Assembly: GCF_004010195.1 (NCBI RefSeq)
Contig: NC_057718.1
Span: forward strand, 81,988,711-82,052,710
Source of the DNA: Chiloscyllium plagiosum
Lineage: Eukaryota
Direction of reading: 5' to 3'
Length of the DNA stretch: 64,000 nucleotides
A program made the position numbers and the translations under genes. The notes beneath the pieces are model-generated. The model searched no databases. It saw only the letters and a program-made list of their open reading frames with translations, and was not told the DNA's origin. Shown in pieces: positions 2,886 through 50,699 of the stretch (its first letter is position 1; each line of letters opens with the position of its first letter).

Positions 2886-3619
2886 AGTGTAAAGCTCAGA
2901 AAGAACATAAGAACACAGGAAAGAGGAGCAGGAGGAGGTCATTCAGCCCATTGAAACTACTTTGCTGTTTTTCCACTATTCTCAAATCTCTTTATGTCAC
3001 CTGTATCTAAAAATCTGTGAATTTCTTTCTTGAACATGTTGAATCATTGAGTTATCAGAGTCCTTGGGCATAAAGAATATTGAGAATAAAGAGAGGAAGA
3101 GAGACTATTAATCAGTGTATAACTGTACTGAGAAATCTAGGTGAAATCTTGAGAATTTAAACAAATAAAGGATGATCCTTGGAATAATATTGCCTTAGGG
3201 ATAAGAAATCTTGTGAGAGAATGTTTGCTGAGAAAAAAAGATACACTCAAGAAAACTAATGGCATGTGCAGAAGCTCTGAGATTATTGATGGGAGAATAG
3301 ATGAGGTTTAACATCTTGCTAAGAGACAGAAACCTAACAAGCACAAGTCAATTAAAACAAGTAAGGACATTGTTTTTATGCTCATCCTTCTGTTCAAAGG
3401 CCAAAACTGATGTACATTTTTGGGGAGGGGGGTGGGGCTGAGAAATCACAAGAAGATTAGAAAGCATGACAATGGGTAGAAGCAGTGGTCTAATTGGAAG
3501 AATGATGTGGAGGTGCCAATGTTGGACTGGGGTGGACACACTTCACTTGGAGGAATAGGGCTTGTGATTTCAAATAAACCTGTTGGACTATAACCTGTGA
3601 CATCTGACCTAATTGGAAG

Positions 3620-5690
3620 ACGCTAAGTCATTTGCATGCAAATATTTTGCTCGAAAGAAGAAAAGGAACCTATTGAGATGATTGCTGCAAAGATTTCTGA
3701 CATATCAGTCTATGCGTTAGCGTAAATTGCCATTCTCAATTCTTAGGGTATAATAAGATGTGCATTGGCAACTGCACCAAGTGAATGTGAAGTATCAGAA
3801 AACATTGCTGCTATGTGCAATAACATGAACTTCTCAGATTTCTGTCAAGATGGTGACCCAAAAACAAAGCTGTTAAAGGCAAAGCACTATGAAGGCATAA
3901 TGCTCATTCCAAGAGGACAAACTAAGCTAAGAGTCCAAAACACCATGAAGAAGGAAGATCTGCAGTTCGAGATAGTGGACATGAAGCAAAATCCCCATAC
4001 CTCAGCTGAAATAAATCAGAAGCTTGGACTGATGATCCTTCACATAGCAGAAGAAATTGACGGTGTTGTGCATATCACCAAAGTATTGACTGTTGAACAG
4101 ATTCTAACAGGCTACATCTTGCTCAAATAATGTAAACTAAACAATGAGATGAAAATCTTCAAATTCTACATCTAAAGAAAGGATGGCCTTAAACCATTAA
4201 AGTAAAACAATACTGGGCATACAGAGACAAAATGACTGCAAGGGAAGGCACCTTGTACAAAGGCGCATTTGTCCATAAAGAAATGCGAAAAGAGATTAAG
4301 TTTTTTAAAAAATTCATTCATGGGATGGGGACATCACTGGCGCGGCCAGCATTTATTGCCCATCTCTAATTGCCCAGAGGGTAGTTCAGAGTCAACCACA
4401 TTACTGTGGGTCTGGAGTCACAATAAGCCAGACAGGAGATCTCCTTTCCTGAAAATGAACCAGATGGGATTTTCTGTCAATTGGTGGTGGATCATGGTCA
4501 TCATTAACTTCTTAATTCCAGATTTTAAAAAAATTGAATTCAAATTCCACCACTTGCCATGGCGGGATTCAAACCTGGGTCCCCAGAATACAATCTGGAT
4601 TAATAGTATAATGATTAATGCCAGTAGACCACCACCAACCCACAAGACATAAGAAAATCAAATCTAATCTGAGGAAGATAATGGAAGTGCTCCACAGGGG
4701 CAACAAGATACAGCTAGTGCTGTGCTTGTAATGAACATCAAGTTAAATTGGTTAAATAATTGGTGATGACATAACATCCCAAACAGACCATGGATGAATT
4801 TTGCAGTGAACCTCTTCACTCTCAGAAACTGATATATCAGAGTTAGCTACTATTCACTCCTAGAAATTATATCTGTTGATGTTTTTGATCTCCAGTAATA
4901 TATCAGGTAACCTTTCAGTCATTAGGGCATTCAAATGGTGAACACAATGGACCTAAACACTGGCGAGGCCATCACTAGTTTTTCTTTTTTTTGAACAAGA
5001 GGTTGAGGTGAACAATTGGACTTTGAATAGCAGATTGCTTTAAAGAAGAGGAGGATGAAAACAGATGTTTGCTGTTGGGAACTGGCCTAGAAGATAAAGC
5101 AACTTAGTTATTGTTCCAAGGATACTATAGGCCAATTGGCACTAAGATGTTGCTACAGTCCGGGCTGGCATCCATGTGGTTGTGATGGCCAACCAGGCAG
5201 GTGCGATGCTAACCAGCCAACCATAGAGAATCTTGATTGGAAAGGGAGAGAAAAGCAACCCTACCGAGCAAATTTGATTCCGCTGACAGAACAAGGAACT
5301 GAAACACTCTTAATCCCAGATATCAACCTTTTCCCCAACAAATGTAATTGATCATCAACCTTAGTAGTGACACTTCCCAGAAATGCAACCTCACCCCAGG
5401 GAACCAAAAGGCACCAAATGAACCATTAAAAACTTACAGGGGCATCATAAGACAACCCGATTGCTTTGAAAAAAAGTGTGCAATAAATTAATGGGGGGCA
5501 CAAACTGGATAGACTAGAAAGAACTTCATGTTCATGCATGATCAACTTTATCAATTGTAACATGAAAGTATGCTAAATGCATATTTTTGTGAAAAGGGGA
5601 AATGTTTGGCCAAATACCTTTGCACATTGTATATTGTCATGTCCATGTGACCTCTTTGCCATGATCTACTTTACTCATCATGTAGAGCTC
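3620..5690 (+). mobile_element. Highly decayed Ty3/Gypsy LTR retrotransposon remnant
   Basis: ORF 3765..4130 looks like a Gypsy protease region (LQFEIVDMKQNP..SAE...LGL); integrase-like IPNRPWM.FAV.LF...YYS at ~4770-4860; purine tract gaaaaggggaaa followed by TG at ~5603. Confidence 0.55.
4310..4640 (-). mobile_element. tRNA-derived SINE (head+tail version of the long element at 11.7 and 33.4 kb)
   Basis: Box B GGTTTGAATCC 4565-4575; body matches 11700-11940; tail gggcaattagagatgggcaataaatgctggcc...cccatgaatgaa matches 14260-14325. Confidence 0.8.
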
Positions 5691-6009
5691 TGATTGGAAT
5701 CCAAATCCATTACTGGATCTCTACTGAAGGCAGAAAAACCGTGCAGGCTTATGAGGAAGGATCACCAGATCCGAAGCATTAACTTTGACTTCTCTGCACA
5801 GATACTGCCAGACCCTGCTGAGCTTTTTCAGCAGTTATTTCTGATTTACAGCATCCGCAGTTCTTTCAGTTTCTATTATAATATACGGTGCATATCGCAA
5901 ATAACTGGTTTACACGGGTGGTGAAGGGGTTTAACCACTAAAATCCTCCTCCAGCTGTTCACCAATTTGCACATAAACTAAAACGTAGCTCTTGTTTTTT
6001 TAAAAAAGT

Positions 6010-6545
6010 AAATCAGTGTTCTCTCGCAAGCAGCACCCCCTCGGGCGAATTAGACCAACGTGAAGAAGGAAATAAACATTAAGCTTAAAATGTATAAACG
6101 TGCGATGTTTAAAACCAAACTCCTCGTCACATTGCGTTGTAAAAACAAATTAAAACCACATCCTCCTCCAGGTCGGTGACTTAGTGAATACATAAATAAC
6201 CCGGTTTGACCTCTCAGCCTCAAGACTAATCTCGAAGTCAAAACCCCTGACCTTCAGGCTTTTTGTCAAGTCGTCCCTCCGGATGATAGTCCCCTGAACA
6301 TTAAACCTGGGGCCTGAAAGGCCTCTCTTGTCTTTATCTCCGGCCGCTCCAGGAGGCCTGCGTTTCCCGGTTACCAGGCAACAGCCACATCCGGTACTGG
6401 GAACCGCCCTTCCGCTGATGTCATATGCCCGCACGTGCTGAAGCACATTGGGAAGCAGGGGCCTGTGACAAAAGCCTGTCCATTATTCTCAAACCACAAG
6501 TCAGCAGGGCGGTGCAATACACTTGCCTTGCCTGACATACGGCTC
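6010..6545. promoter_or_regulatory. CpG-rich promoter of an unidentified gene, probably transcribed leftwards
   Basis: X-box GTTACC-A-GGCAAC 6370-6382; ETS-like ACCGGATGT (-) ~6387-6395 and GCGGAAG (-) ~6410; E-box CACGTG ~6432; candidate minus-strand donor AAG|gtcagg ~6250. Confidence 0.65.
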
Positions 6546-6729: not shown

Positions 6730-7590
6730 TAAATGCACACTATCCACAAGGGTGTAATATGTTGAGGCTCTTTCAACAGGACCTTCAACATCTGCAACCG
6801 CTACCACCACCTTGAAAGGCAGCAGATGCATTAGCATCCTACCACCTAAAGTCCCCTTCAAGTCACTATAATCCTGATTTTGAACTATATCACCATACGT
6901 TCACTTGGTCAAAATCCTGGAACTTCCTTCTGATTGTTCTATGGGTGTCCTACACCTTAAGGACTGCAGTGGAAGGCAACGTACTGTAACCTTCAGGGCA
7001 ATTAGGAATGGTCTATCCAGCAATACCCTACCTTCTTCAGGGCAATTAGGAATGACTTGGCCAGCAATACCTACAGCCTATGAACAAATAGAACAAAACC
7101 ACTAACAAAAGTGTGATAGTAAACCAACCAGTTGTCTATGCTATTACCTACAACACCATGCTTCTTTGCCTTGTGTAGTAAACTATTTGTGGCATGTTGA
7201 TAAATCTGAATATACTATAGTTACTAATTCCTTTTTATTCACCCTGTGCTTTACACCCTCAGAGAATTCCAGTAAGCATCAAATGCAAGTTCCTCCACAG
7301 AATCATACTGATTCTACCTCATTGTATTATGATTTTCTCAATATCCTGGCACTACCTCCACCTGCAAATTCCTCTGCAAGCTACTTAGCACCTTGACCTG
7401 GAAATGTATCGCTATTTCTCAGTGGTTGCTGGGTCAAAGTCCTGAAACTAACAGTATTTTGGATGTACTTATAACAAATGCACTACAAAGGTTCATAAAG
7501 GTAGCTGACCATCATCTAGTTAGGACAATTAGGGATGTACAATAAATGCTAGCCCAGCTAGCAAAGCCTATACCCCATCTTGAAAATAAT
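6730..7590 (+). mobile_element. Two 3' tail fragments of the CR1/L2-group LINE family seen at 11.7 kb
   Basis: ggtcaaaatcctggaac...gggcaattaggaatg motifs shared with 14160-14300. Confidence 0.65.
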
Positions 7591-9681: not shown

Positions 9682-12600
9682 CTGAAAAGTATGAATAGAG
9701 GAATTAAACACAAACAGAATAGGACAAGCAATATACAGAACCAACGTAAGCCTACAAATCAACAGAGCGGTGCAGCATCAAGCAGGTATCCAAAAATTAA
9801 AAAGAAATCCTTCTGCTTAATACTGCAGTTAACTATGTACTTTTGGAGAAAAACAATTTGAGATGCTCGGAAACAAAAACAGAAATTTCTGGAAAAATAG
9901 CAGGTCTGGCAGCACCTAGTCATATAAACATGCAGCACAGTGAAAAAAGTCCCAGTCTATCCAGCCTCAATTTAAAACCCACCAGTCCTGGCACCATTCT
10001 GCCAAATCTTTTGTGAACCATCTCTAATTTAAAAATATCCTTCCTATAACAGGGTGACCAGAACTGTACACAGTACTCCAAAACTGGCCTCAATCAATGT
10101 CCTGAACAACCTCAATATGAGGTCCCAACTCCGAGACTCAATGGTGTGAGCAATGAAGGTAAGCGTGCCAAACACCTTCTTAATCAGAGTCTACCTGTGA
10201 TGCAACTTTTAAATTGTGGAGAGAAAGCAGAGTTAATGTCACATTAAAACGTAAAACATTAACTCTGCTTTCTCTCCACAGATGCTGCCAGACCTGCTGT
10301 GTTTTTCCAGCAATTTCTGTTTTAGTTTGATCTCAGATTCCACAGTTCATTGCTTTTTATTTTTAGGTGATGATCTGTTTAACAACTATGTTTCTCTGGA
10401 AGACAATTACTTGTTTAAAAAAAAAGACAGACTTGTTTGCCTATTCAGTCAATGAAGTACATTTTGAAGTGTAGTTATAGTTGTATGTTTAAAGAAAAGA
10501 AAAACAGCCCAATTACAGAGCATTGATTGTTGAACCTGCAAGCAATCACCTTGGATTAGATGTCCAGAGTTTCTGCCTCCTGAGAGAGTTTACATAAACT
10601 TGTTGGGAGGGGGGAACATCATCTAGTATACTAGCAACTCAAAGGACTGTCAGCAGCTACGTAAAGGAGAGGGAAGATCATATAAGTGGAAATGGCTCTT
10701 TAAGTTGTGGATGAAAAGGAAACGGCAGTACTAATGTGTCTTCTTTTCCAAAACAGCAGTACCTGCAGCAGTCTAATATGCAAACTCAGGAATTCCCTTA
10801 CTAAACCTCTTCTACAAGATCTCCATTAAACTTTTCTTTTCTAATATCTCCTCCTTTGGCTTCTGATTTATCAAGAACCTTGGGAAAAATTTCTGTATTA
10901 ATGCACAAAGAAATGTTTTTGTATGCACAGTGACATATTACAACTCAAAACTGTGGTGTTAGTTGCAGCAAAATAGCCAAATACAAAATACAAAATAAAA
11001 TAAAATAAATAATTTTGGGAGCAAGGGGAGGATTTGAAAATACTATTAACGACAATTTTGCTGTCATTAAAAGTTCTGTCAATGTTTTTATAACAATAGC
11101 TCTGCACTCTTTCAATCATTACAGTTACTCCATTGCTGTGATAACAGTTCTAGGAGAACAGTCTGCCAGCAATGAGCAGCAGATAACAGGTGTTGTGTAT
11201 ATCAAAAACAGCAATAAAAACTTGAAGTCACAAATTAATCCAAACTGAAACACAGGAAAAGAAGAACATGCGATTTTCCTAAAATGCATCAAAAATTGAA
11301 ATCTGTGGAGTATGCACTTCCAAAACAAAGGAATGTAGAAGTATAGTTTATATTTAACCACTGATCAGGAAGTCAGCATAAGGGACTTTTGTAAAAACTA
11401 TGCATATTTTAGTTGGAAAGATAAAGCTGAAAAATGCAAGATTTATGATTAGCTTGTTTTTAGAACTCAAAAGGAAAAGTGGGACTGAAACAGGATTTGG
11501 TAGTTTTGCAAGACATGTTGGCACTAGATTTTCTTTGAGGGGGAAAAGAAAGTAACTGTCGAATATTAACTTGTGGATTGGTTCAAATAACAGTCTTTCA
11601 CTGAACTGAGAGAAGACAGAACAGCTGGAACAAGGCCACCAAAAAGACTGTCAGCAAGCAAAATCACTCTGTCAGGGCAGGCGATGGCATAGTGGTATTA
11701 TCATGAAACTATTAATCCAGAAACTCAGCTAATGTTGTGGGGACCTAGGTTTTAATCCTGGCAGATTGTTGAATTTGAATTTAATAAAAAAATCTGGAAT
11801 TCTACTGATGATCATGAAACTATTGATGACAGTTGGAAAAACCCATCTGGCTCACTCATGTCCTTCTGCCATCCTCACCTGATCTTGCCTACATATGACT
11901 CCAGATCTACTGCAATGTGTTTGACTCTCAATTGCCCTCTGAAATGGTTTAGCAATGCACTCAGTTGTAACAATCAAAATCTCAACACAGAAATGAAACC
12001 ACTTAGCAGTGATCCAGAAAGATAATCTCCTGCTGATTACCATACACCATTCTCCCTCAGCTGATGAATCAGTACTCCTCCAGTTGAAAAGCACTTGGAG
12101 GAAGAACGGAGGGTGGCAAGGTACTCTGGGTGGGGATTTCAAAGCCCACCATCAAGAGTACTCTGAAGCAACACTGCTGGTCTGGTCTGACATCAAGGGA
12201 GCTTACGAGAAAAAACATACTTAACCTCATCCTTACCAATCTGTCAGCTGCAGATACATCTGTCCGTGACAGTATTGGGAAGGGTGACCACTACACTGTT
12301 CTTGTGGAGACAAAGTCCACCTTCATATTGGGAAAACCTACAATCATGTTGATACTATCATCATGCTAAATGGGACAGACTTTGAAGTGATTGGGCATCC
12401 ATTACACAGTATATGCTATCAACAGCAGCAATTCCAAAACAATCTGCAAAGCCAGGCCTAACATACACCCCATCCCCCCACATCCACACCCTCACCACAC
12501 TCCAAAACTCAACCATCACCATCAAGCCAGATTCAATGGAGACAGCAAGAGGGGATGCCAGGAGCAGCACTGGATATACCTAAAATGAGTTGTCAACCTG

Positions 12601-15600
12601 AGGAAGCTGTCAAACAAGATTACAAACAACTGGATCAGATCCAAGCTGTGTCACATCCAGTCACGAATAGTGCTGAACAATCAAACAACTCACTGGAGGA
12701 GGTGATTTCACAAATATCTCCATCCCCAATAACGGAAGAAGCGAACACATCAGCACAAAAGATAAGGCTGAAGCATTGGCAACAATATTCAGCCTTAAGT
12801 GCTAAGTGGATGACCAATCCTGGCCTCCTCAATGGCCCCAGTATCACAGATACCAGCCTTCAACCAATCTAATTCACTATGTGATATTAATAAACGACTG
12901 GGAGCACTGGACAGTAAAAGACTATGGATCCTGACAACATTCTGGCAATATTACTGAAGACTTATGCTTCAGAACTTGCTGCAACCTTAGCCAAGTAGTT
13001 TACAGTACAGCTACAACACTGGTATCTACTTGACAATACAGGTATTCCTATATTCAAACATCAGAACAAATTCAACCCAGCCAATTACTGCCCCAGTTTA
13101 TTCTTGAACACCAGTAAAGTGATGGAAAGTGTAATCAAAAGTGCTATCAAGCAACACCTGCTCAATGACATTCAGATTGGCTTCTGCCAGGGTCACCGAA
13201 CTCCTGACCTCATTACAGACTTGGTTCAAATGTAGACAAAAGAGTGGAGTTCCAAAGATGAGGTGAGAATGACAGCCCCTGATATCAAGGCTGCATTTGA
13301 CCAAGTGCGGTATCAAAGAGCCCTTGCAAAACCGGAGTCAATGGGAACTGGGGAAAAGCTCTCTGCATCATCCCTGGCACATTGGAAAATGGTTGTGGTT
13401 GTTGGAGGTCAGTCATCTCAGCTCCAGGATATCTCAGTAGAGAATCCTCAAGGTACTGTCTTAGGCTCAATGATCTTCAACTGTTTGATCAATGACCTTC
13501 CCTCCATCATCACAACGTCTGAAGCAGGGATGTTTGCCACTGATTGAACAATTCACAACTCCTCAGATACTGAAGGAGCCCATGTTCAAATGCAAGATCT
13601 GGACAATATTCAGGCTTGGTTGGACAAATGGCAAGTAACATTCGCACCATACAAATGTCAGGCATTGACCATCTCCAATGAGAGACGAACCTACCACCGC
13701 CCTTCACGGTGTTATCATCAACATTCTTTGGTGTTACCCTTAACCAGAAACTAAACTGTACTCGCCACAAGAACAATCAGAGACTGGAATACTGCAGTGA
13801 GTAACTACTCCCCTGACTTTTCAAAGCCAGTCCACCACCTACAAGGCACAAGTCAGGAGTGCGATGAATAGTCGCCACTTGCCTTGATGGACGCAGCTCC
13901 AACAACACTCATGAAGCTTGACACCATCCAGGACAGAGCAGCCTTCTTGATTGGCACTGCATCTGCAAACATTCACCACCTCTGCTCAGTAGCAGCAGTG
14001 TTTTACTATTTACAAAATGCACTGCAGAAATTCAAAGATCTTTGCTGAACACCTTTCAAACCTATGACCACGTTCACATAGAAGGACATGGGCAGCAAAT
14101 ACTTGGGAAGACCACCTTCAAATTCTCCTCCAAGCGTCCAAGTGAAGTTCACCTTCACCGATGCTGGGTCAAAATCCAGGAATTTCCTCCCTGAATGGCA
14201 TTACAACCCACACCTAGACTGCAGCAGTTCAACAAAGCAGCTCATCACCATTGTCTCAAGGGCAACTAGGGACAAGCAATAAACACTGGACAGCCAGTGA
14301 GCCATCCATATCCCATGAATGAAAAAAGATAAATAACACACAAAAGACTTTGCAAAAAGAACAAATTGTTAACTTAAGCAAAGACCCATGCTCAATTGAC
14401 TCATTACTGAACTGATGATTGCCTCAATTGGCATCATGATATCATTACCAAAAGGGAACTGTGAGAACGTCACCTAATTTCTCCTTGAGATTTGGATTCT
14501 GACACATAAATCTTGCGCCTGTATTTTCCACCAACTTCTTCCTACAAAAACTATTTGTCTCATTTTCCCATCCTGTGTGAGAGCAAATGTACATGCTTAG
14601 ATTTAAAGGGGGCTTAGTTTAAATTTGCAAATTAATGAATAATGTTTGTCATATGTTAAAGGATAGTTTTGCTATAATAAATTAAGTTTTGTTTTCTTCT
14701 TCATTGACGAAATTCGGAGAATTTTCCTTATCTTAGACAGTGATACAGTGGAACATTAACTATCCTTGACCTTAAATTGGTCATATTTCACATTTGTGCT
14801 GAGTTCTAAAGCTCAACATCCAGTGCATTATTTTTAAATCAGTGTTGTGACACTGCGCTGTTAAGTATTATCTACAAATGATAAACTAATAGAGGTCGTT
14901 TTCAACTCTAGTAATTTATTTCTCTAACCCAAGTAGCAGGGAGTAGCTAAGATGTAATTAAAAGGATAACACATAACTAGCCTAGAAGATAACATACTTA
15001 CTGGGCACATTCCACAAGGTGTCCGCATCAAGCCAGTGGGCTGAATGATGAGATTAACTGCCCGATACAGCTTCATTTGTCCATCCACACTCCCAACAGT
15101 CCCTTCCTTTGCGGCTATGATGGTCATCTCCACTTTTCCGTCATATATCAATGTATTCAGAATGGTTTCAATGTCTTCCATAGAGAGTTCCACCTGAGAT
15201 TACAAAAGCTATTGAAGTTATTCACAGTCACTGAGCAATAGAGAAGATTCACAGACTTTTTTTTATTTCATAAATTTACTTTATTCATAAAATAATTTGA
15301 TGGTCTGTACAGTTGGTCATGCCATACATACATAAACATTTACATAGAGATCAGAATTTATCATTTGTACATACAGGTCTGTACATTTATCAATCATATA
15401 TCCATATATTTAGCTGAGGCGTCAGCAGAGCCCAAATGACTGCGTGAGCCCCCTGTTCTTCTTAGGCAGGCAGATGTTACATGGTGGTCTTTCCCCATTG
15501 TGCCTTGACGGCAGCTGCCCCAAGCTTCAGCGCGTCCCTCAACACGTAGTCCTGGACCATGGAATGTGCCAGTCTGCAACACTCAGTCGGGGTCAACTCC

Positions 15601-18600
15601 TTCAGCTGGAAGATCAACAGGTTTTGGACTGCCCAGAGAGAGTCCTTCACCGAGGTGATGATCCTCCAGGCACAGTTGATGTTCGTCTCGGTGTGCGTCC
15701 CGGGGAACAGACCGTAGAGCACGGAGTCCCACGTCACGGCGCTGCTCGGGACGAACTCTCAAGGACACTACGTGCTGATGGACTTGTGGTCAAAGGTGTT
15801 TTTCTTCATAAACTTCTCCACAAAGGACAGGTGATACGCAACGGTCCAACTACTCGGAGCGTTCCGCCGCAGCGAGGCCAGGCCCATCCTTCGCAACACC
15901 GGGGACAGGTAGAGCCTCAGTATGTAGTGACACTTGGTGTTTGCGTACCGGGGATCCACGCACAGCTTGATGCAGCCACACACAAAGGTGGCCATCAGGG
16001 TGAGGGTGGCATTGGGTGTATTTTTTCCCCCGTTGCCCAGATCTTTATACATAGAGTCCCTTTGGACCCGGTCCAACTTTGACCTCTATATAAATTGGAA
16101 GATGGCTCAGGTGACTGCAGCAGCACAGGTTCTGGGAATAGGCCAGACCTGTGCCACGTATAACAGCAATGACAGTGCCTCACACCTGATGACCAGGTTT
16201 TTTCCCCGCGATGGAGAGCGACCAGTTTCTGCCTCACTTTGCTGATACGCTCCTCCTAAGACTTGGCGCACGCCCCAGCTCTCCCGAACCAAATACCCAG
16301 CACCTTCAGGTGATCGGTCCTGACGGTGAAGGGGATCGAGGATTGGTCGGCTCAGTTCCCGAAGAGCCCCCGAGGCCCATTCAAACTGGTCACATTTGCA
16401 CATGAGTCTGCGCACGGACAGCGAATCCGAGCAAAAAACGGTGACATCGACATCATCCATGTACAGGGAGGCCTTAACCTGTAGGCCCCAGCTGCCAGGA
16501 ATAGTCACCCCTCTCAGGCTCGCATCCTTCCTGATGGGCTCGGCAAATGGCTCTATGCAGCACACAAACAAGGCAGGAGAGAGAGGGCAGCCCTGTCTGG
16601 CTCCAGATCTGACTGGGAAGCTATCTGATTCCCACCCATTGATTGAGACTGCACTGACAATGTTGGTGGACAGCAGTCTGATCCAATTGCAGATTCCCTC
16701 CCCAAAGCCCATTTTGGACAGAACATCTCTCATATACGTGTGCAGACACAACAGAAAACTCAAATGTACAAAAAAGTCAAGCTATTTGTTGGAATGAGAA
16801 GTGATTGAGTACTAGTCCAATCCAACAACTGTTTTAGTGATTAGTACTGGTGATTTAGTGATGACGCAGCCCATTAACTTTCAGCAGTGGTTCCTTTAAA
16901 ATAGGAACAGAACAGTAGTTTTCTACATATAGCTACAGAACCAGTAAACTACGAATCCAGAGGATATAGTTATTTAAATAACAAAATATGGATGGGCATG
17001 AGTGTAAGTCCACTGTAAGGACTGGCCGTAAACCCTTTGAAGAACAAAACAGGTTTATTGAGTTTAGTCACTGATGAGCAATTGAACTCCAGATATCTGT
17101 CTTTATCCATATTCCTTAACAATGTTAGTTGGCAAAAATCTGTTTTAAAGTTAACAATTGATCTAACATTTTGTCACTAATGGCAATTAATGTTTCAAAT
17201 TTCTACCACTTGTTGCACATGCAAATGTTCCCAATTTCAATCCTTAAGTTTAGGGTCAATATTTTTTTTGAAAAAAGGTAATACACTTTAGTCCTATACG
17301 GAACAACCCAAAGCAATAATTTCTCTGTATTTCAATACATCTGCTCCCCTTCACATCAACTTTCTTGTTCACTGGTAATGGTAATAACCATAATTTATTA
17401 AATCTCAACTCATAGATTAGATTACTTACAGTGTGGAAACAGGTCCTTCGGCCCACCAAGTCCACGCCGACCCTCCTTAGAGCAACCCACCCATATCCAT
17501 TCCCCTACAATTACTCCTTCACATAACACTACTGGCAATTTAGCATGGCCAATTCACCGAACCTGCACATTTTTTGGACTGTGGGAGGAAACCGGAGCAC
17601 CCGGAGGAAACCCAAGCAGACACGGGGAGAATGTGCAAACTCCACACAGACAGTTGCTTGAGGCAGGAATTGAACCCACATCTCTGGCGCTGTGAGGCAG
17701 CTGTGCTAACCACTGTGCCACCATTCCGCCGCTTGACTCTGATGGTCAAGTTACCATGCCACTAAATATATGCTAAAGTCTTTGCAAGACCAACAGGTCC
17801 AAGCTGTCAGGAAGACCAGAGCTGTGCTGAAGTACAAAGGACAGTAGATTTGCAACCTAGTTGTGCTAGTGCTCTTGCAAAGGAAATTCACTTGTGTCTT
17901 GGTCTCATCAGACCAAGTTTAGAATCTGTCAGTAATCACTCCAGTATAGATGGGAATTGGGTCATGCTGCATTTTTTCTTCCCAGGCAACTTTTAGGGTG
18001 TTGAGTACCTTTCGGGTCGAATGCAGAGACAATGGACTTGGTTATCTTCAACTTGTAGAAACGTTCATCCATTTTTGACAGGCCAAAGTTTAGTGCGGCC
18101 TCTGTATCCTGGAAAGATTTTGTCCGAGTTGTCAATACAATATTATTGGCAAAAGTAAATTTTCATGATGGGGTTGGCATGTAGCTAACATGGATATTAA
18201 AACAGGTCTGCGCCATAATGTCTTGTGGGAGATCACTGAGTGATTCTAGAGAGCTGGCTTTGTCCCATCAGTAGATCTACATTGCAAAGTAATAGAACAA
18301 TGTCCACAGTAGACAGGTACATGATAGCAACAGGAGCAATTTGAGCAGCAATCTATGTTTCCATACTATTGTAAGTTTCATAGATTTAAGAGCTTTTCAA
18401 GGGCTTGTTTACAGAAACTGCGATATATTCATCCATGGCCACATCTGCCTTCAAAAGTCGATGTGAAAGATCCCACATACCATTTGAAAGAAGAGTAGGG
18501 AATTCTCCCCAAGACTTGGCTAATATTTAACCCTCAACAATCATAGCTGGAAGATGAAGGCCATGGTTTGATAGCAAATGACAGATCAATAGTGCATTTT

Positions 18601-21600
18601 AAATGATCTTTGAGAAAGCTGCGCACAAAGATCTAGCAATTCGTGTGGTATGTTGCCCCCTCTTCTTAATGGCCATTTAAGTGAAGTTAATGGGAATGAT
18701 TTGGTGTGTAACAACAGTGATGTCAATTAAGTAACCAATTACACTGAAGCACTGAGACATAGCAAACCAGGATGCTAAAAATACTTGAATTTCACTTTTA
18801 ATCCAAATTTTCAGATAACCAAATTCTCAATTGGACTAAGGTAAAAGTTGGCTCAGTGGTTAGCACTGCCACCTCACCGCGCCAGGAACCCGGGTTTGAT
18901 TCCAGCCTCGGGCCACTGTCTGTGTGGAGTTTGCACATTCTCCCAGTGTCTGCGTGGATTTCCTGTGGATGCTCTGGTTTCCTCCCACAATCCAAAGATG
19001 TGCGGATCAGGTGAATTAGCCATGCTAAATTGCCCATAGCGTTCGGAGATATGTAGGTTAGGCGCATTAGTCAGGGGTAAAATGTAGGGGAATGGATCTG
19101 GGTGGGTTACTCTTCGGAGGGTCAGTGTGGACTTGTTAGGCTGAATGGCCTGTTTCCACACTGTAGGGCTCTATAAAAATCTGTGAAAGATATGGAAATT
19201 ATTAAAGAGACACTTAGCATATACAAATATAGAATTAGCTCTTTCAGGGTTAGTTAGAGTTTAACAATAATTATGAGGTTATTATGGTGTTGAAAGCTCA
19301 GTTATATGTTATTCAGTGCAGTGATGAGTGATATAGATGCCAATCATATCACAAGGACTCCATATCACTCATGCATTGGAGTGCAAACAGTTGGATTTTA
19401 TCTCATTAGCTTGAGTTAATCAAGAATGTTCAGTGCTTTGTGGTTCTCAGACTGGTATTAAAGATAAAGAATGACAATATTATCCCACGATATAGAGTAC
19501 AGCGGTTATGATGGCAACCCAGCATGGTGGTCAGCTAGTTCCCCTGTGGAAAATCATCATCAGTGTCAATAAGTGGTGAGACTGGTACAATTACAACATT
19601 TAAAAGACTTCTGGATAGGTATTTGAATAGGAAGGGTTTAGAGGGATGGGCCAAATGCTGGCAAACGGGACTAGATTAATTTAGGATATCTGGTTGGCAT
19701 TGACAAGTTGGACCAAAGTGTTGGTTTCTGTGCCGTAGATCTCCAGGACTCTAACTCTATGACCTGGTAACCTTGACACTCAATTATCTTCTAACCAAGT
19801 AGGACAATATTTTCTGTGACAACTCAAACATTCAACTTTCCAGTTTTCTATACCTTGCTGATACCCAATTCACAGATGTATTTCCACACTTCGTGGGATG
19901 AAGCAAATGAACTGTTCCTCTGTACCACTGGACTTTGTTTACTCTCACGAGCCACTTCTGCCTATAGGGAACACATAGTTGTTTTCATCATTAGTCTCAA
20001 TTTCCATGTAATAGTGCTCAATGTAATGATTCAAATTTCCATTCATTACAGTGGTGTACAGCATTCTCTGCAGTTATATCACTTATAGGTTTACATTAAG
20101 TATCAAACACGTCTAACAATGTGCAACGTAACATTAGGAAACCTAGACTCAAAAACTTGGATGCAAGTAGTTTGATATTGTTAAGTTGAAGGAGTGTACT
20201 GTACCTTTAAGAAAAACTGAATGCTGTACTGATCTGAGAGCTTACAAGCACATATGTATATGACTAGATGGCAATCCCAGAGAGTATTGGAAAGTCGAAA
20301 ATATGTAACATTTGGCTGTAAAATGGATACCTGAGTTTTGGTTGCTGTTTGACAACAATTTGAATTTATCCAGTTTAAATTATGCCCCAGGATATTAAAA
20401 CCCAATCGAGTTTAAATTTATTGGTTCCATGTCTGCAAAACAATTAGACAATCAGATGTTGGGGGTACAAAAATGTGGCCATTTTGAAAATTGGTCAGAG
20501 AGCAACTGCCATAGAGGCAGCTCCAAGAAATTAGGAAACACTCTCTACTTTTTCATTTGCAACATACTCACAGCCAAAAGAAAGAAGATGACCCAGGGAA
20601 TTCAGCAGCCAGAAGAGTGAAGTCATAGAAGACGACAGTGGCTGTGTGGTATTGAAACTAAGTTGATGTAATTTTAATAAGCGTCTTATTGGAACAGCAT
20701 ATTATTATGGAGTTGGAGGCAGGTAATAAGCAGTTAAGAGAAAGGGGGGCTTAGAGTTGTGAATAGTTGTTGTTTAACGTTCACTTTTAGAGATTAAAAA
20801 AAAATAATGTTATTTTCTTTAAATAGTGGAATCCGGGAGTTCTCTATCACTCATATTTTAACAGATGGTGAGGCGGGGTGAGCTTTTCTGGGTGTTTGGT
20901 TTCATTAACAGAGGGGTTCATCACCGTGTCATCACAATATAAGGATATTTTAATCATAAAGAACAATGGAACCTCAGGAATATGCTGTTTGTTCACATAG
21001 TGGATACCCATTTCTCAGAGCAAGAGCTCTGTCTGCATCTGACAAGGTCAGGGTTCAAATCTTATAACAAGTGAGTTCTGCATAGTGTTATCAGGTCCAG
21101 AACCTTTTAATGGATTTGTTTTGATGACATAAAATTTTTCCAGCTTCACTCTCAACTCTCCATTCTTAAATTAGACTTTAATCAATATATCTGTTTGTTG
21201 TTGCTCAGATCAAATGGCTTTTGGAGAGATTTGAGCAGTGTATATGACACATGCAAAGAGCATTTCTTTGTATTTATCCACATTTTTTGATTATGGACTA
21301 AAATGGAGGAAAAAAATGATCAGCTCAAGAATTAACTCAGCAGACCCTGTGGTCAGGGATCACAAAACTGCCTTCTCAGTCTTTCCTTCCAACTATAACA
21401 CCCATTTCCTTTTCCTTGATTGTGTATGTAATGTGTAGAGAGGGAGCGTGTAAGGGGACTAGAGTTTTAACTGGTAGAGTTTTATGTCTATGGTTCATTA
21501 GTGTATATATGGAGTTTGACTATTTTTACAAATAAATTTTTTTTTGATACATTACTAGTCAGTACTTTCAATGAACCAAAGTCTGAAAGGCAAATAAATT

Positions 21601-30600: not shown

Positions 30601-33600
30601 AGAGGTTTTGAAATCTTTAGAATTAAGAGCTGAAAATGCAAGAGATCATGTCACAACTCCTGGTGTGAATGCAACTGGAAAGGTGGGAATCAGATGGAGG
30701 GTGAAGAATGATGCAGAATAAAAAGAATTGTTGAAAGAAGCCTTACTCAAAGTCGTACTGGTGAAGCAAAGGAAAGCGCAAAAAAGGCCAGTGATGAGAG
30801 AAAAACCAGAGTTAACAATAAAGTCACACAGATCACCTTGGTGAAACATAACATGCATTCCCAGAGAGGATACCAGAGAAAGTGCTGCAAGAACCTTTCT
30901 GATTGAAGAAGCCAAGTTCAGTTGTTTTGACAGTTTTGGGCTTTGTGGAGAAAAAAATGTTTGGCACAACATTGGAATAGAACTTCCTGTAATTGGGTCA
31001 GAGCCTGCAGTGACTGCCAGGAGGTTAAAGGGAACATTAGGGGACGCATAAGAACAGGAGTAGGCCATTCAGCCCCTCACATTGGTCTGTATTTCAATTA
31101 GTTCATAGTCAATTTGAATCTTAACACAAATTACCCTTCTTTATCATTAAAATATTCTAGATTATAAAAATTTTACTTTGGAGCCACCATGCTCCAAAGT
31201 CTACTCTGCTGACAAATGAAAAGTGAGATGGAGGAGGACAAAGGAATGTGTCCAAAAAGCAATATACTGGAGAAACAAAATCTTCAAAATGTGGAGATTG
31301 CATTTAATTCTGCTATTCCTCAGATTCTTCTGCCATCTACCACTGTAGTTACTATCCACTTTTCAAATAGGGTCAGCCATTGGTCCCAACCACCATTCCC
31401 AGTAATCCAGTCCAGCCCTTAATAAATCCCAAGGTAAAGAAATGATTCCGGACATGAGTCCTAATTTGACAATACTTCAGAACCTTGTACCGGCAATGTT
31501 TGTCAAAAGAAAATGCAACAAACTAAGTCAAGGTCTAGTCTTTTACTGCCAATTACCCCAACACACCTGTACATAGCTGGAAGTGGAGCTAAAGGTAGAA
31601 AAGTGAAGTCAAACGTAGACATCAGCCAAGATCTAACTGAATGACAGAATACACTCTCCTTGTTTCTGTGTACTTTCCACAATCCAATAATCCAAAATGA
31701 TACAAAGTTAATATTCACATAGTTACGCAAAATATTAAAAGAGGTCACTCACCTTGCAGTCTGAGTATCCTTTATGCGATATAGGAGACCTGAAGTACCC
31801 CTTAACAGATCCAATTGGCCCTGAAATAATTCAACAATGTTACTTACTGAATGAAATGAAATGAAACAGGAAAGAAAAAAGTGCTCAAAGATGTATTCAG
31901 CAACATTACTGCAGTTAAATTTTTTAAAAGGGTGGCACGATGGCTCAGTGGTTAGCACTGCTGCCTCACAGCGCCAGGGATCCAGGTTTGATTCCAGCCT
32001 TGGGCGACTGTCCGTGTGAATTTTGCACAATTCTCCCGGTGTCTGCGTGGGTTTCCTCTGGGTGCTCCGGTTTCCTCACAGAGTCCAAAGATACGCAGGT
32101 CAGGTGAATTGGCCATGCTAAATTGCCCATAGTGTTAGGTGCATTAGTCAGAGGGAAATGGGTCTGGGTGGGTTACCCTTCGGAGGGTCGGTGTGGACTT
32201 GTTGGGCTGAAGGGCCTGTTTCCACACTGTAGGGAATCTAATCTAATCTAATTAAATAACTTTGCTGATTTGTTGCACTCTTCAAGCCACTCACGTAAGG
32301 AGATTAAATTACATAGTTTTAAACAATAGGGGAAAAAAAACCCACTGGTAACGAAAACAGACTTAAGCACCAATACAACGCGCACAAAACGAACAGAAAA
32401 GTGGTATAAACCTCAAGTTATCTAGCTAAGCCTGCCGTCACAGCACCTTCAAATGACTTCAAAGTCACGACTTTAACATTTAGTAAATGGAACGGCAAAC
32501 AGAGAAGCTGAAATTACATCAAAAGACATGTACAAGAGTACAGATGATGACACAACACCACCACTTACAAATCCTCCATGTAACCACAAACCATCTTGAT
32601 ATGGAAATATGTGTCAATGTTCCTTCGCTATCACTAGGTCAAAATAGTGGAACTCCCATCCTAACAGCACTGTAGGTATACCAACACCAGATAAACTGCA
32701 GTGGTTCAAGATGACAGTACACTTTTTTTTAAAAAGCTTTTAAGGAATGGGTAACAAATGTTGGCATTTCTAGAAACATTCAAATCCCCATGACAAAATA
32801 AAATTACAGGTTAATCACACCCTGTATCCATTCAACACACATTATACATGCAAATAACAATCCTTCAAACCCTGGAAGTTACATTCCAAAATTCAAGCAG
32901 TTGGAGGAAATGCCCAGAAATTAATGCTTCATTAATAAAAGGTTAAAAACCTAAAACACAAACAAGACATTACTGCAAAACTAAACTGAAAACAAAAAAT
33001 GCTGAAAATCACAGCAAGTCAAGCAGCACTCGAGCGTTTCAAGTCAAAATGACTCTTTATCAGAGCTGACGTGAGCCACAAACCCAACGGCAAGAACAAA
33101 TTCTCAATACAATATGGGTCCAAGTCACACCCGACACTGAAGCCCACAATATAACTGACTCTCTCGTGCAATAATAAGGAAACAGACTTACAGCAAACAC
33201 CAAATTGTCATCTTTCAAACAAGATGTTAAATGTTATTCTGTCTATATATGGATAACAAATAGCAGAAAATTCAACTCAGAGTCTGGCCAACACTTATCC
33301 GTTGATAAACAACTACAAGTTCGTAGGTATCATCACATTGCTGTTTCTGGGACTTATTCACTCATTGGATGTGGGAGTCTCTGGCTGGGCAAACATTTAT
33401 TGGCTGTCCGTAGTTGCCTTTATGGAAGTGGAGGTGAGCTGACCTCTCGAACATCTGCAGTCCATGTGTTGTAGGTAGACCCTTAATGCCATTAAGGAGA
33501 GAATTCTAGAATAAGGAACTGCAAGGGAACATGTAGGTGGTGGTGTTTCCTTGTCTTTTTAGGTAGAATTGGTCATGTGCTCAGAAGGTGCAGTCCAAAA

Positions 33601-36600
33601 GTCCTTGGCAAATTTCTGCAGTGCATCTTATAGATAGTACAAATAACTGCTACGGAATGTCAGCAGTGGAGTGACTGAATGCTTGTGGGTGTGGTGCCAA
33701 AGCAGGTGGTTTTGTCCCAAATGGCATCAAGCATTTTTGTTGTTGGAGTTGCACTTATCCAGACAAGTGCAAGTATTCCATCAAGCTCTTGATGTCTTGG
33801 AGATGGTGGACAGGTTTTGCACAACTGTAGTCTGAGCCACTAACCTAGTCCTGTAGTTCAGTGTTTCTGGTCTCTGGTAAGCCCCAGGATGTTGAAAGTG
33901 GAGTGAAACAGAGATTGTGACACCATTCAACATAAACATGTCGTGATTAGACTAACTTTTAATGGAGATCATAATTACCTGGCACTGGCACAAGTGTTAC
34001 TTACAACTTTTCAACCCAAGCCTAGAGATATTGACTAGATCTTGTTACGTTGGACTGCTTCAGTATCTGAGGAGTCGTGAATTGTGCTGAACATTGGCAA
34101 ACATCCCCAATTCTGGCCTTATGAAGGGAAGGTCACTGATGAAGCAGCTGAAGATGGTTGGGTTAGGACACAACCCCGGGGAACTTCTGCACAAATGTCC
34201 TGGGGCTGAGAGGACAGACTTCCTGATGTTCCAACTCTGATCTCCAGCATCTGCAGACTTCACTTTCTCCATCTTCCTATGTGCTAGGTATGACTCCAAC
34301 CAGCTGAGAGCTTTTCCCCAAATTCCCAGTGTCTCCAGCTTTGCCAGGATTCTTTTGAGACCACAAGCGTGATCTTCAGATCAATAGCTGTCACTCTAAC
34401 TTCACTTTTGGAACTGAGTTCTTTTGATCATGTTTGAACCAAGCTGTAATGCAGTGGCCCTAATGGCAGTGGCCCTAATGGAATCCAAATTGAGTGTCAA
34501 TGAGTAAGTTATTCCTGAGCAAGTGTTGGTCTTTCATCATTTCACTGAAAATGGCAAGACAACTGGTGAGGTTGTAATTGGTGAAGTTGGATTTGTCTTG
34601 TTTTTTGTGTACACAACACAACCTGCTGCAATTTTCTAAATTGTTAGGTACATGCCAGTGTGGTAGTTGTACTTGAATAGCTTTGCTGGGGTGCAGCAAC
34701 TCTGGAGCACAAATCTTTGGTATTATTGCTGGAACCCTATCAAGGCTCATAAGCCTTTGAAGTATCTAGTGTCTCCAACCATTTCTTGATTTCACATGGA
34801 ATGAATCAAATCGGCTGAAGACTGGCAACTGTACTGCTGGGAAACAGAGGAGGATCATCCACTTGGCACTTCTGAATGAAGACTACTATGAATGCTGATC
34901 TTCTACACTGATGTGTTAGGCTCCTCCATCATTGAGGCTGGTGATACTTATGGAACTACCTCCTTCAGTGAGTTGTTAATTGCCCACCACTATTCATGAC
35001 TGGATGTGGCATAACTGCGGAGCTTAGATCTCATCTGTTGGTTTTGAGATCGATTAGCTCTAATTGCTTATGTTGTTTGGCATGCAAGTAATCCTGTTGT
35101 GACTCATAACCAGGTTTTGCCTGGTGCTGCTCCTGGCACGCCCTTCTCTGCTTTCCACTGAATCTGGATTGATCCCATTGCTTGATGGTAATGATGGAAT
35201 AAGGGATATGCCTAGCCTTGAGGTTGCAGATTGTGTTTGAATAAGATTCTGTTTTTGATGGTCCACAGTGCTTTATGGTTGCCCAGTCTCGAGATGCTAG
35301 ATCAGTCAATTTCAGTTCAGACCATGGAGCCACACAGTGCAAGGGACTCTCAATGTGAAAGCAGGACTTCTATCTCCACATGAACTGTGTGATATCTCGT
35401 TACTGATATTATAACAGACAGATGTATCTACAGCAGGCAGACTTGTGAGGAAATGGTTACATATGACTTTTTCCCTAACCACCTGCTGCTAGATTGGGTC
35501 TGCAATAATGACTTTTAGGGTGTGACTGGTTTGGTAGTGCTGCTGCTGAGCCACTCTTGGTGGTGGACATTGAAGTCTCCCACCCAGAGTACATTCGGCA
35601 TCCTTGCCACCCTCAATGATTCCTTGAAGTGTTGTTCAAATGGAGGAGCACAGTCATCAGCTTAGGGAATCAGCAGTAGGTTTTCATGACTATGTTTGGC
35701 TTGATGCAATGAGATTTTCCAATGTCCAGAGTAAATATTGAAAACTCAAAGGGCAACTCCCTCCTGACTGTGCCGTCACCTCTCCCAGGCCTGTCCAGTT
35801 GGTAGGAGAGGACATATCCAGGGATGGTGATGGTGATGTCTGAGACATTCTGTAAAGAATGCTTCTGTGAGTATGACTATGTCAGACTGTTGCTTGAATA
35901 GTGTGAGAGACAGCTTTCCCAATTTTGGCACTAGCCCCAGTTGTTAGTAAGGGGGACTTTGCAGGGTCAACAGGGCTGTTTTGCAGTTGTCCTATGTTGA
36001 TGCCAGGTATCCAGGTTTCATTTTTAGTGATTGATACAACTGAGTGGCTAGTTCAGAGTCAACCACATTATTGAGAGTCTGGAATCACATGTATGCCAGA
36101 CCAGGTAAAGATGAAAGATTTCCTTCCCTGAATGACATTAGTGAACCAGATGGGTTTTACTCCTTCCCCAATTATTAGTGGTTCGTTAATGTTAGAATCT
36201 TATTGCCACCATCTGCCATGGAAGGATCGGTACCCAGAACATTACTCAAGTTTCCAGATTAGTGAAAAGCAAAAGAGCTGTGGATGCTGTAAATCAGAAA
36301 TAGAACCTGCTGGAAAAGCTCAGCAGGTCTGGCAGGGAAACCATGATCCAACAATTTGTGTTTCTGTTTGCATATTAATGGTCTAGTGATAATACCACTC
36401 GGCCATTGCCTTGTTGTGTACAAATGTTTGTTAATTTCCCACACTACAGTAGCTACAACACAAAAATCTCATTGAATATTCCAAAATGCTTTAGAGTCAG
36501 AGGTTAGCATATGAACAATATGAATACAATAGATTTGTTATGAATATTTAATAGCCTACTATTGCGAGAAGTCTGTTGATAGCCATTGCCCTCTTCTGTG

Positions 36601-45424: not shown

Positions 45425-45738
45425 GATTAGATTAGATTACATTACAGTGTGGAAACAGGCCCTTTCGGCCCAACAAGTCCACACCGACCCGCCAAAGTGC
45501 AACCCACCCATATCCCTACATTTACCCCATACCTAACACTACGGGCAATTTAGCATGGCCAATTCACCTGACCTGCACATCTTTGGACTGTGGGAGGAAA
45601 CCGGAGCACCCGGAGGAAACCCACGCAGACACGGGGAGAACGTGCAAACTCCACACAGTCAGTCGCCTGAGGCGGGAATTGAACCCGGGTCTCTGGCGCT
45701 GTGAGGCAGCAATGCTAACCACTGTGCCACCGTGCCGC
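45425..45738 (-). mobile_element. HE1-like SINE, young (CpG intact)
   Basis: GCGGCACGGTGGCACAGTGGTTAGC...GGGTTCAATTCC; (AATCT)n tail; another 3' fragment at ~47870-47975. Confidence 0.92.
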
Positions 45739-46921: not shown

Positions 46922-48557
46922 GATTAATGTTGTGTATAAATAAATACTGGTGTAGATCTGGTGAGTCAAGTGACTTGATCCTGTGGTGTAGGTACTATAT
47001 AATTGCTGTAGTGAGGGAATTTCAAAGTAAAAAGGTGCAGGTTGGAATTTGATGTCTTCTCCCACTGTCAGATAGTAATTTTTTCAGAACTTACATCAAA
47101 CAAGAATGGAATGGCGCACATGTTTGTTTGCATTACATTAAAAATATTTTAATCAACTTGTTAGCCACCATATTTTATATTCCAATGAAACTACTTATTT
47201 TTATGCAAACTACTATAAGTACAGCAATCACTCTGGTGTGAGAAAATGAGGAGGGATGTACCAATTGAATAATTGTAGGAAAATGAAAGTTTTAGGTGCA
47301 GGAATTGGTTGAGTTCTTCTGTAACTAGAGGAGTAGTAACAGTTTCATATGGGAATAGTGGTCTAATCTGCATATGTCGTGACAGAGTATCCTATTATCC
47401 AAAACATCCACCCAATTCAGGGGATAATTTTATTATAGCAAACAGGACCCTATGACCCAAATAGGATACCAGATGTCAAATACAGTCGCACTTCTTGTTG
47501 GCCGTTTTGGACACATGATGATCAGTTCCATAGGTAATTGAACCAAAGTTATTTTGTGGGATCCTGAGGAAAAGGAGAGGCAACAAGAATTAAATTGGCC
47601 ATTGCTGACTTGGGAATCCTCCCAACGATTTGCCTTGCTGTAAACTGCCCAATTCTGAATACAGCAAACTATAGAGGACAACTATTTGGCATCCCATGGT
47701 TTATCTGTCAATATTAAACAAGTTTAGAGGACCCGACAACCACCTGGAAAACTCTGGGCAGCCAAGCAGAGCAAGTCAAAACAGATCCATGGGAAAGTAG
47801 AACTTTAGAAGCAAGATTAGGACAATAGGCTCTTCAAGCCTTTTCCACCTTCAGTAAGATCATGGCAGATCTAGATTAGATTTAGATTAGATTACATTAC
47901 AATGTGGAAACAGGCCCTTCGGCCCAACAAGTCCACACCGACCTGCCGAAGCGCAACCCACCCATACCCCTAACTAGATAGGGGTATGGACAATAGGTGC
48001 AGGAGTAGGCCATTCTGCCCTTCGAGCCTGCACCACCATTCAATATGATCATGGCTGATCATCCTTAATCAGTATCCTAAATAGGAACTCCACTTTCTCA
48101 TTCCATAACTTGGAATGGGCAGGTTGTCTTATGAAGAATGGTTTTCAGGTATGAAGAATGGTTTTCAGGCTATTCTTGTATCCACTGGAGTTTAGAAAAG
48201 TGAGAGGTGACTTGATTGAAACAAAAAAAAGATCCTGAACAGTCTTGACAGGGTGCATATGAAAGGATATTTCCTCTTGTGGGAGAACCGATATTTCAGG
48301 GTTACTGTTTACAAATAAGGGGCCACTTATTTCAATCAGAAACAAAGATATTTTTTTCTCACAGGGTTGTGGGTCTTTGGTACTACCATCTTCAAAAAGC
48401 AATTGAAGCAGAATCTTTGAATATTTTAAGACAAAGATTGTTGGATTCTTGATGAGCAAGGGAACTAAAAGTAATTAGGGTGAGGTAGAAATGTGGACTA
48501 ATCAAAATCAGTCTGATCTTAGAGAATGGTGGAGAGGCTTGAGGGGACAAGTGAGGG

Positions 48558-49765: not shown

Positions 49766-50699
49766 TGGTCTATTATTTATGAAGTGCCAAAATGTAATCA
49801 GTAATAATTGGGTTATTAGTTATTGACACGAGGAGGAGGTTTTAATGATTAAATTATTGGACTATTAATCTCGAGGCCTGGATGAATGAGCCAGAGACAG
49901 TGGGTTTGTGGTGCTGTCTGGCCTGCCTGTTGGCTTGCACTGCCTTGCCTTCAGGAGCTTTGGAGATGGGTTTTTGGGGATAGTCTATTAAAGGTAAATG
50001 AAAGGCCAGTTGTCAGAGGCTGACTGGACTTTTGTTTCATACCCAGGTCTGATACCCAGGGGTGGCTTCTCCTTAGTAGATCATGGTAGGGGAACTCCAG
50101 ATCAGTCTTGTGGCCCTTCCCAGTAAGCGGGTGACAGGTCCCATGGTAGCTGTCACTATTCTTTGCTTGAGCATTTTAAAAGTTGCTGAGTGGATTGCAG
50201 CATTATAGGGCACCTTCTCCCAAGTCTACAACAGTAGGCCTCTGCATCTTTCAAGATGAAGGATTGAGAGTCCACCTGCTGTTCATAATTGGACAGTGAT
50301 TGTGCCCTTTGTCCACTGTTGCTAGTTCAGGGAAAATCACCATTTGGTGACTGCTTCTCGGGGCCCAGACCTGAAATGCAAAATCCTTACCTTGAATTTA
50401 AACCTCCCCATGGCAGCTGGGCAATTTAAATTGTGGTAATTAAATCATTTTGGAATCAAGAAACAGCTATACCCCATATTAGAGCCTGCAAACTACTGCA
50501 TCATAGTGCAGTATAAATCCATCTGGCTTACTAATATTTTACTAATAGAGAATGAAGTCTGCAGTCTCTGTCCTGTTTAATGTATATGTAGCTCCAGACC
50601 CACATAAGTACTGTTGTCTTTCAACTGCCCTCTGAACTGGCCTAGCAAGCCACTCTGTTATTTATAAAATGACTCACCAGAAAGGTAATGAGGGATGAA

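Follow-up and report, generated by a model that had tools for sequence, protein, structure and literature searches.

A tRNA-like SINE head fixed on the coding Zenon LINE of Chiloscyllium plagiosum and its possible transcription by RNA polymerase III

The 64,000-nucleotide (nt) stretch of Chiloscyllium plagiosum DNA analysed here (contig NC_057718.1, positions 81,988,711 to 82,052,710, hereafter the window) carries two decayed long interspersed elements (LINEs), copy A on the forward and copy B on the reverse strand, which belong to the elasmobranch Zenon family of the CR1 group described by Stuart et al. 2026 (PMC13343379). As the first-pass annotation of this DNA had noticed, each of them starts with a tRNA-like head holding a box A and goes on into endonuclease and reverse transcriptase (RT) sequence. 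Relative to the majority sequence of the family, copy A is 85% identical over aligned columns (covering 11676-14320) and copy B 82% (36411-33360). Some details of that annotation have to be amended. Box B is decayed but kept in copy A; in copy B it is partly deleted and the head is interrupted by a foreign piece of 86 nt, 88% like window positions 5805-5866, which is a fragment of another repeat inserted after copy B landed. The common junction and the motif aaATGAAACC lie where they had been placed, but the shared body of some 300 nt (~300-317 nt) turns out to include the head, which takes up ~93 nt by itself. In copy B the apurinic/apyrimidinic (AP) endonuclease strand KVLL starts ~60 nt past the conserved ATG; copy A has lost the N-terminal half of the endonuclease (majority positions 356-709), so that the spacing between head and endonuclease is visible only in copy B.

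Copies A and B are old members of an abundant, multi-thousand-copy family of 3.28 kb. A query laid across the junction of copy B gave 6,550 first-look candidates in the 3.56-Gb genome, and all of the 40 that were scored proved to be matches. Because such a query selects for the junction itself, the search was repeated with DNA of the endonuclease only: among the 29 new loci obtained, 25 carry on into head or body, while the four others end at majority positions 342-488 and are preceded by mutually unrelated DNA. When an amphioxus relative served as protein query, the Zenon family took all top ten places, seven of these matches reaching head or body and three being cut within the frame, and CR1 came next. 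No headless sister family was found among the 29 endonuclease-query loci and the 12 of 54 amphioxus-query matches inspected; one candidate sister family (locus L124, 39% protein identity) was discarded as a frameshifted copy of the headed family. The majority sequence, built from 84 non-redundant sequences (133 loci plus copies A and B, minus 51 overlapping records), is 3,282 nt long with a mean depth of 54, and consists of the head, a SINE (short interspersed element) body of ~220 nt, an A-rich linker, a single endonuclease/RT frame and an A-tail, the part shared with a short SINE ending at position 293. Among anchors obtained with queries other than the SINE query, 65 of 77 run into the frame, five into the tail and seven into neither. 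The junction is therefore not confined to copies A and B; it recurs genome-wide at one position, in dozens of loci, and also in the consensus sequences of other species, which bears out the earlier proposal that head and LINE moved as one unit. For the same reason, a chance nesting of a SINE and a 5'-truncated LINE at copies A and B, with which the want of visible target-site duplications would agree, is vanishingly improbable. The copies differ from the majority by 8-19% (median 11.7%, n=80), the three codon positions having decayed to the same extent, and the family is dead in the genome of C. plagiosum.

The coding part of the majority is one frame of ~977 codons, which runs from nt 295 through 900 stop-free codons, then passes a single TGA, in a CpG-type column with 11 C and 18 T, and is closed by a stop at codon 978; natural pieces of this frame match the Pfam models Exo_endo_phos_2 and RVT_1. 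Since only 294 nt precede it, there is no room for a first open reading frame (ORF1) between head and endonuclease, exactly as the first-pass annotation had it; the lack is nevertheless not unusual as was supposed there, Zenon and Rex1 elements all being without ORF1 according to the relevant part of PMC13343379. The second supposition, a continuous ORF2 starting at aaATGAAACC, has to be abandoned: the conserved ATG opens a +1 frame of 35 codons, out of register with the Arg-rich leader and the endonuclease in frame 0, where the first Met is codon 293, and the in-frame start codon of an autonomous LINE is absent. The closest full-length relative found, P0067 (983 aa), is 39.6% identical over 981 columns, carries an Arg-rich leader like that of frame 0 and has its Met 1-2 codons before the position of the conserved ATG, which implies that the start region is homologous and that the in-frame AUG is missing here. 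A search of prokaryote and viral collections did not bring up the DNA of P0067; short pieces used as queries for homologues returned 0 and 2 matches, and an atlas search gave only generic RT clusters. In an RT tree of 38 rows, built without named Zenon references, the family does not pair with shark CR1 (a long branch) and pairs with locus L225 at 98/90. Its RT is ~34% identical to that of CR1 in the same genome, and the canonical traits of vertebrate CR1, an ORF1 of the esterase lineage and a tandem-repeat tail, are replaced by the absence of ORF1 and an A-tail; the probable placement in the Zenon clade is taken from the consulted part of PMC13343379. Young CR1 copies with open frames of 760-800 codons (L314, L315) exist in the same genome, unlike Zenon. 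As for gene models, a cystathionine beta-synthase-like one of catshark (P0002) includes ~150 residues of the Zenon RT region, through exonisation or gene-model error, and one of whale shark also holds a homologue.

Shared variants divide the family into subfamilies that are all headed and have the same junction, head variants being linked to frame variants. Between subfamilies S1 (12 copies) and S2 (22 copies) we counted 51 synonymous and 38 non-synonymous differences over 810 codons, a ratio of non-synonymous to synonymous rates (dN/dS) of 0.22-0.27 (p ~1e-9); the corresponding values are 0.24-0.30 for S1-S3 and 0.29-0.36 for S2-S3, all obtained with CpG-like sites masked and with groups picked by hand that comprise 49 of the 84 sequences. 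Private mutations, taken as a decay control, gave 0.91-0.93. The linkage of head and frame variants together with the common junction indicates that selection acted on the frame at a time when it bore the head; that heads were captured independently at the same base is possible but unlikely. It is likely, judging from these sequence comparisons, that the headed unit was autonomous, and the once-autonomous LINE that the first-pass annotation had suspected gains from the purifying selection on headed lineages, as expected of such an element. One could otherwise imagine a non-autonomous SINE-LINE chimera, which RNA polymerase III (Pol III) would have amplified, with a distinct conventional Zenon moving it in trans, given that every copy seen is broken and without in-frame AUG and that small-RNA/LINE chimeras are well known for L1 (PMC13174262, as far as consulted). 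Such a chimera would hardly show a dN/dS of 0.22-0.27 between headed subfamilies with one shared junction, nor a continuous 977-codon frame surviving in the majority; the same structure is found across sharks and rays, with no headless partner among the loci inspected. We hold this explanation to be very improbable and largely refuted. With its long selected frame the LINE also departs from a SINE in the sense of an element devoid of coding capacity, which describes only the short form at 4312-4631.

The label "tRNA-derived" given to the head depends mainly on the match and spacing of box A (majority 9-19) and box B (73-83). ARAGORN at default settings reported no tRNA in the window and Rfam none in five family loci, and a cloverleaf with a long variable arm was obtained for majority sequences only, at a relaxed ARAGORN threshold that also yields spurious folds. 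Head and body together presumably correspond to the modules named SacSINE1 and Deu. The 5' end of the element is the +1 of the SINE, 32 of the 84 sequences, a sample that favours long copies, reaching majority position 5 or less. A weak match to a miRNA model, below threshold, at L131 426-527 belongs to a long near-perfect hairpin that is probably a small inverted-repeat element.

Pol III stops at runs of four or more T (T4+) and in part at degenerate T-rich signals (PMC3141230, in the part used here), and the check for such terminators on the sense strand, which had been proposed from the start, came out clean: the 3,282 nt hold no T4+, no T2VT3 or T3VT2 and three TTT, against 14 T4+ and 70 TTT on the antisense strand, so that the element has no internal terminator, like a Pol III type 2 unit. 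The significance lies in TTT, found three times against 14.0 expected in dinucleotide shuffles (none of 1000 as low) and twice against 12.5-12.7 in synonymous-codon shuffles (none of 2000 as low). It is the most depleted trinucleotide, phenylalanine being encoded 16 times by TTC and once by TTT, and none of the three TTT is preceded by TC or TA, which form minimal terminators according to PMC8466645 (as consulted). The ratio of observed to expected TTT is 0.16, compared with 0.81-1.26 in 48 other LINE frames, all 48 of which have T4+; these controls are a non-redundant set from 64 of 80 metagenomic loci, mostly single copies from AT-richer hosts and with no close headless Zenon DNA among them. 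L225, the nearest control in the tree, stands at 0.81 with six T-runs. The majority of CR1 from the same genome contains 38 TTT (37.9 expected) and seven T4+ within 1,596 nt, the sense part to which this control was limited since its seed held an inversion, and two single CR1 copies have 13 and 11 T4+. Neither box A/B nor a tRNA was detected upstream of 14 long metagenomic LINE frames.

The 3' end was examined along with RNA reads. An A4+ tract is present in 31 of 38 anchored LINE tails, a count for which 23 of 92 hits were dropped for want of an anchor. Between the end of the element and the A-tail, behind AATAAA, 4-10 T are often found (e.g., window 4305-4320). T4+ precedes the A-tract in seven of 31 LINE tails and 11 of 28 SINE tails, compared with 3.7-6.2% of all A-tracts; measured against A-tracts already preceded by T, the excess is marginal for the LINE (p 0.02-0.50) and stays for the SINE (p 3e-5-0.02). 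Tail T-runs lengthen after insertion in T+ class SINEs (PMC8466645). A terminator built in before the A-tail was consequently not retained, the marginal LINE excess and the possibly mutational origin of the T-runs making it a lead only. Four sequencing runs were searched with locus L040 at 80% likeness and gave 1,345 reads in one RNA run and none in a second raw run; the RNA reads are sense-biased, ~2.5-4:1, at head and tail and low over the frame. In RNA as in contigs, the last 500 nt have 5-10 times the depth of the mid-frame region, a hint at many short 3' copies or at a longer-tailed derivative.

From this body of evidence we infer, with a probability of roughly 60%, that Pol III, acting through boxes A and B, transcribed the autonomous headed Zenon and that translation was non-canonical; the strong avoidance of T-runs on the coding strand makes it likely that this strand was copied into RNA by Pol III, an enzyme not known to produce coding messages of such length. 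In such a scenario an ancestral elasmobranch Zenon would have acquired head and body, in place of its own 5' untranslated region, through a template switch to a SINE that it was already mobilising. Transcription by Pol III would then have covered the 3.3 kb and ended in a T-run located at the A-tail or behind it, and internal terminator-like runs would have been purged by selection even at a cost in codon choice. The uncapped RNA may have been translated without an in-frame AUG (R2 being a precedent for uncapped non-AUG translation), through a non-AUG start or a frameshift near the out-of-frame ATG, perhaps with the help of the structured body, and the Zenon protein would have copied its own RNA by target-primed reverse transcription, the SINE moving by means of the shared tail. 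Several observations weigh against this proposal. A long uncapped Pol III RNA without in-frame AUG should translate poorly. None of 147 scored copies has an intact full frame, none of the 13 copies with both ends (8-19% diverged) shows a target-site duplication longer than 6 nt, and the reads at L040 form no pile-up at start or end and are uninformative on start sites. The AATAAA found 40-50 nt before the A-tail fits RNA polymerase II (Pol II) equally well, the absence of T4+ by itself is not significant (P 0.06-0.21), and the Zenon frame is poor in T (20%) and in Phe (1.7%; one of 30 long relatives as low). The make-up of the control LINEs and the hand-picked subfamilies count on the same side.

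Alternatively, the element would have been autonomous with its translated RNA coming from Pol II, by a promoter in the body or by host read-through, the head being a passenger or acting in part of the cycle and T-avoidance reflecting RNA stability or base composition. A capped RNA is easy to translate, AATAAA stands before the A-tail, T4+ absence alone falls short of significance, and the lepidopteran Zenon is without a Pol III promoter in the part of PMC6740152 consulted. We think this alternative unlikely, although it is a serious contender, because five species have retained box A and box B, because the 5' end coincides with the +1 of the SINE in the long-copy-biased sample described above, and because the depletion of TTT lies far outside the 48 other LINEs and the CR1 of the same genome. 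A Pol II message would leave the lost in-frame AUG unexplained too.

The head also raises the question of who borrowed from whom. The majority of the short SINE equals LINE positions 1-293 (91%) joined to 3219-3282 (86%), with the junction at a single position in all 30 anchors of the SINE query and in five more found elsewhere, and its head shows 7-11 differences from LINE subfamilies over ~255 non-CpG sites. Such exactness would suit a reverse history, in which the LINE had head and body from ancient times as a 5' end of its own and gave rise to SacSINE1-type SINEs through internal deletion, and insect Zenon does generate internal-deletion elements (PMC6740152, in part). This reversal bears on origin only and is compatible with Pol III transcription; we find it doubtful, though worth keeping in sight. 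Sharks, chimaera and coelacanth have SINEs that combine a tRNA head with a Deu body and the shared tail (PMC5499810, in part), and in bivalves Deu SINEs are driven by Zenon tails (PMC11481361), whereas headed Zenon was seen only in elasmobranchs. Moreover, a decayed SINE at L099 2625-2860 (minus strand) has a different head, and its body passes into the tail at majority 317, not 293. There was thus an older form of the SINE, from which the local one may have arisen through a short deletion. On account of the SINEs in chimaera and coelacanth, the Zenon-tailed Deu SINEs of bivalves and the older form at L099, we favour an early capture of the SINE head by Zenon, followed by deletions or end exchanges that would have given the local SINEs; most likely, both capture and deletion occurred.

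It is tempting to go one step further and to propose that a coding, autonomous LINE of sharks and rays swapped its Pol II promoter for the tRNA head of a SINE and was transcribed over 3.3 kb by Pol III throughout elasmobranch history, with T-runs purged, uncapped AUG-less translation in which the SINE body recruited ribosomes, and exchange of ends between LINE and SINE. This extended version is tentative and, in our estimation, falls somewhat short of even odds. The textbook division assigns Pol II and coding capacity to LINEs, Pol III and non-coding sequence to SINEs. If the proposal were true, one family would be both coding and Pol III-transcribed, a natural long Pol III messenger whose codon choice was shaped by the terminator, and AUG-less translation of an uncapped retrotransposon as well as the role of the conserved body domains of SINEs would become testable. 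The Deu-type SINEs of sharks would also have in Zenon a partner with which they have both ends in common and not the tail alone.

Table 1. Positions in the window of the two Zenon copies, their parts and the related short elements.
Feature	Position	Strand
Copy A as a whole: decayed, nearly complete Zenon LINE beginning with a tRNA-like head, without majority 356-709	11676..14327	+
Head of copy A, tRNA-like, with box A at 11684-11694 and a decayed box B at 11748-11758	11676..11763	+
Copy A SINE body, common to the short SINE (presumably Deu-type)	11764..11941	+
Last part of the body of copy A, its A-rich linker and the ATG at 11993 (out of frame), followed by the deletion of the endonuclease N-half	11942..12001	+
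Frame of copy A, single and broken: AP endonuclease (C-half) to ~12319, RT ~13046-13761, C-terminal part, stop near 14269	12019..14271	+
Copy A 3' tail common to the SINE (AATAAA, hairpin, short A-tail)	14260..14327	+
Copy B as a whole: decayed, nearly complete Zenon LINE beginning with a tRNA-like head	33355..36411	-
Copy B head: box A 36406-36396, foreign insert 36356-36271 (86 nt), partial box B near 36228-36224	36214..36411	-
Copy B SINE body, linker and out-of-frame ATG (36021)	36014..36213	-
Copy B broken single frame: N-terminal endonuclease strand (35960), RT ~34617-33856, to stop	33410..35960	-
Copy B 3' tail	33355..33419	-
Short SINE, first 293 nt of the LINE joined to its last 64 nt	4312..4631	-
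Fragment of an older body from the SINE/LINE 5' module, followed by neither tail nor ORF	50515..50659	+

Other repeats share the window with the elements of Table 1. Old 3' Zenon fragments (66-79%) lie at 6471-6534, 6815-7011, 7354-7577, 32554-32717, 61708-61945 and 63169-63318, and RT fragments of other LINEs, 24-29% identical to Zenon and probably CR1, at 24296-24941, 28251-28673 and 41377-42015. A separate family of tRNA-headed SINEs of ~315 nt, 77-93% alike, which presumably resembles the HE1 SINE of sharks, occupies 17413-17729, 18849-19168, 31934-32248, 45425-45738 and 47875-47972.

The family is already on record in the literature as elasmobranch Zenon; the published consensus includes the head, which goes unremarked (PMC13343379). 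In the supplement text of that paper a 19-nt motif of copy B matches six Zenon rows and nothing else. By eye over the first 400 nt, the CarCar, HypSab, RhiTyp and ScyCan consensuses and three of SquAca, hence five shark and ray species, have the same head, boxes, body, linker and ATG, and RhiTyp_Zenon-1 is the closest, nearly letter-for-letter like our majority; the length of the linker differs between species, which indicates that it is non-coding. The two hagfish Zenons, compared in the same way, start differently and are rich in T-runs at the 5' end, and the 5' end of the coelacanth Zenon is given as low-confidence. As reported there, Zenon of elasmobranchs, coelacanth and hagfish is always without ORF1 and ends in poly-A, and the elasmobranch elements were absent from repeat repositories. 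Consensus lengths of 3,244-3,314 nt, compared with 3,282 nt here, the lack of ORF1 and the A-tail are common to both descriptions, but the main text of PMC13343379 mentions neither tRNA nor polymerase III, and the head, the avoidance of T-runs, the out-of-frame ATG and the relation to SINEs go undescribed in the parts consulted. The "CR1-Zenon like LINE" of whale shark (bioRxiv 10.1101/443036, in part) can be grouped with the same family.

Among other known systems, cited for the parts consulted, the DeuSINEs SacSINE1, SacSINE1-CM and LmeSINE1 (PMC5499810, PMC3747384, PMC4824008) likewise combine a tRNA-like head, a conserved body and a LINE-derived tail in sharks, and fit the short SINE; they are, however, non-coding, and their partner is given as L2-2_CM or as CR1-4_DR-like, with homology reported for the tail only. 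Persaeus SIDE and the lepidopteran Zenon (PMC6740152) share the single frame, the poly-A and the formation of a two-end internal-deletion derivative, but this Zenon has no tRNA homology and no Pol III promoter. SINEs built on bipartite RTE and Vingi LINEs (PMC5786205, PMC7245038) also join a small-RNA head to LINE parts through a template switch; the products are non-coding, the bipartite donors listed are RTE, Ingi, Vingi and R2 only (PMC5786205), and autonomous LINEs are assumed in the same work to be transcribed by Pol II. In the small-RNA/LINE-1 chimeras of PMC13174262 a non-coding RNA is fused to the 5' end of a LINE during retrotransposition, although the tRNA/L1 chimeras are few one-off insertions of mostly antisense half tRNAs, whereas the Zenon head is sense and the fixed 5' end of a family. 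T+ class SINEs (PMC8466645) have AATAAA, a T-run in some copies and an A-tail in common with Zenon, yet they are short and non-coding, and the likeness may be mutational as T-runs lengthen after insertion. No description of a tRNA-headed or Pol III-transcribed autonomous LINE, nor of the head and Pol III signature of Zenon, was found in the literature searched, prior notice in Repbase, Dfam or older papers being possible. Compared with all of these systems, what is new here is a fixed SINE-type head on an element that shows both autonomy and terminator avoidance, the family itself and its lack of ORF1 having already been published.

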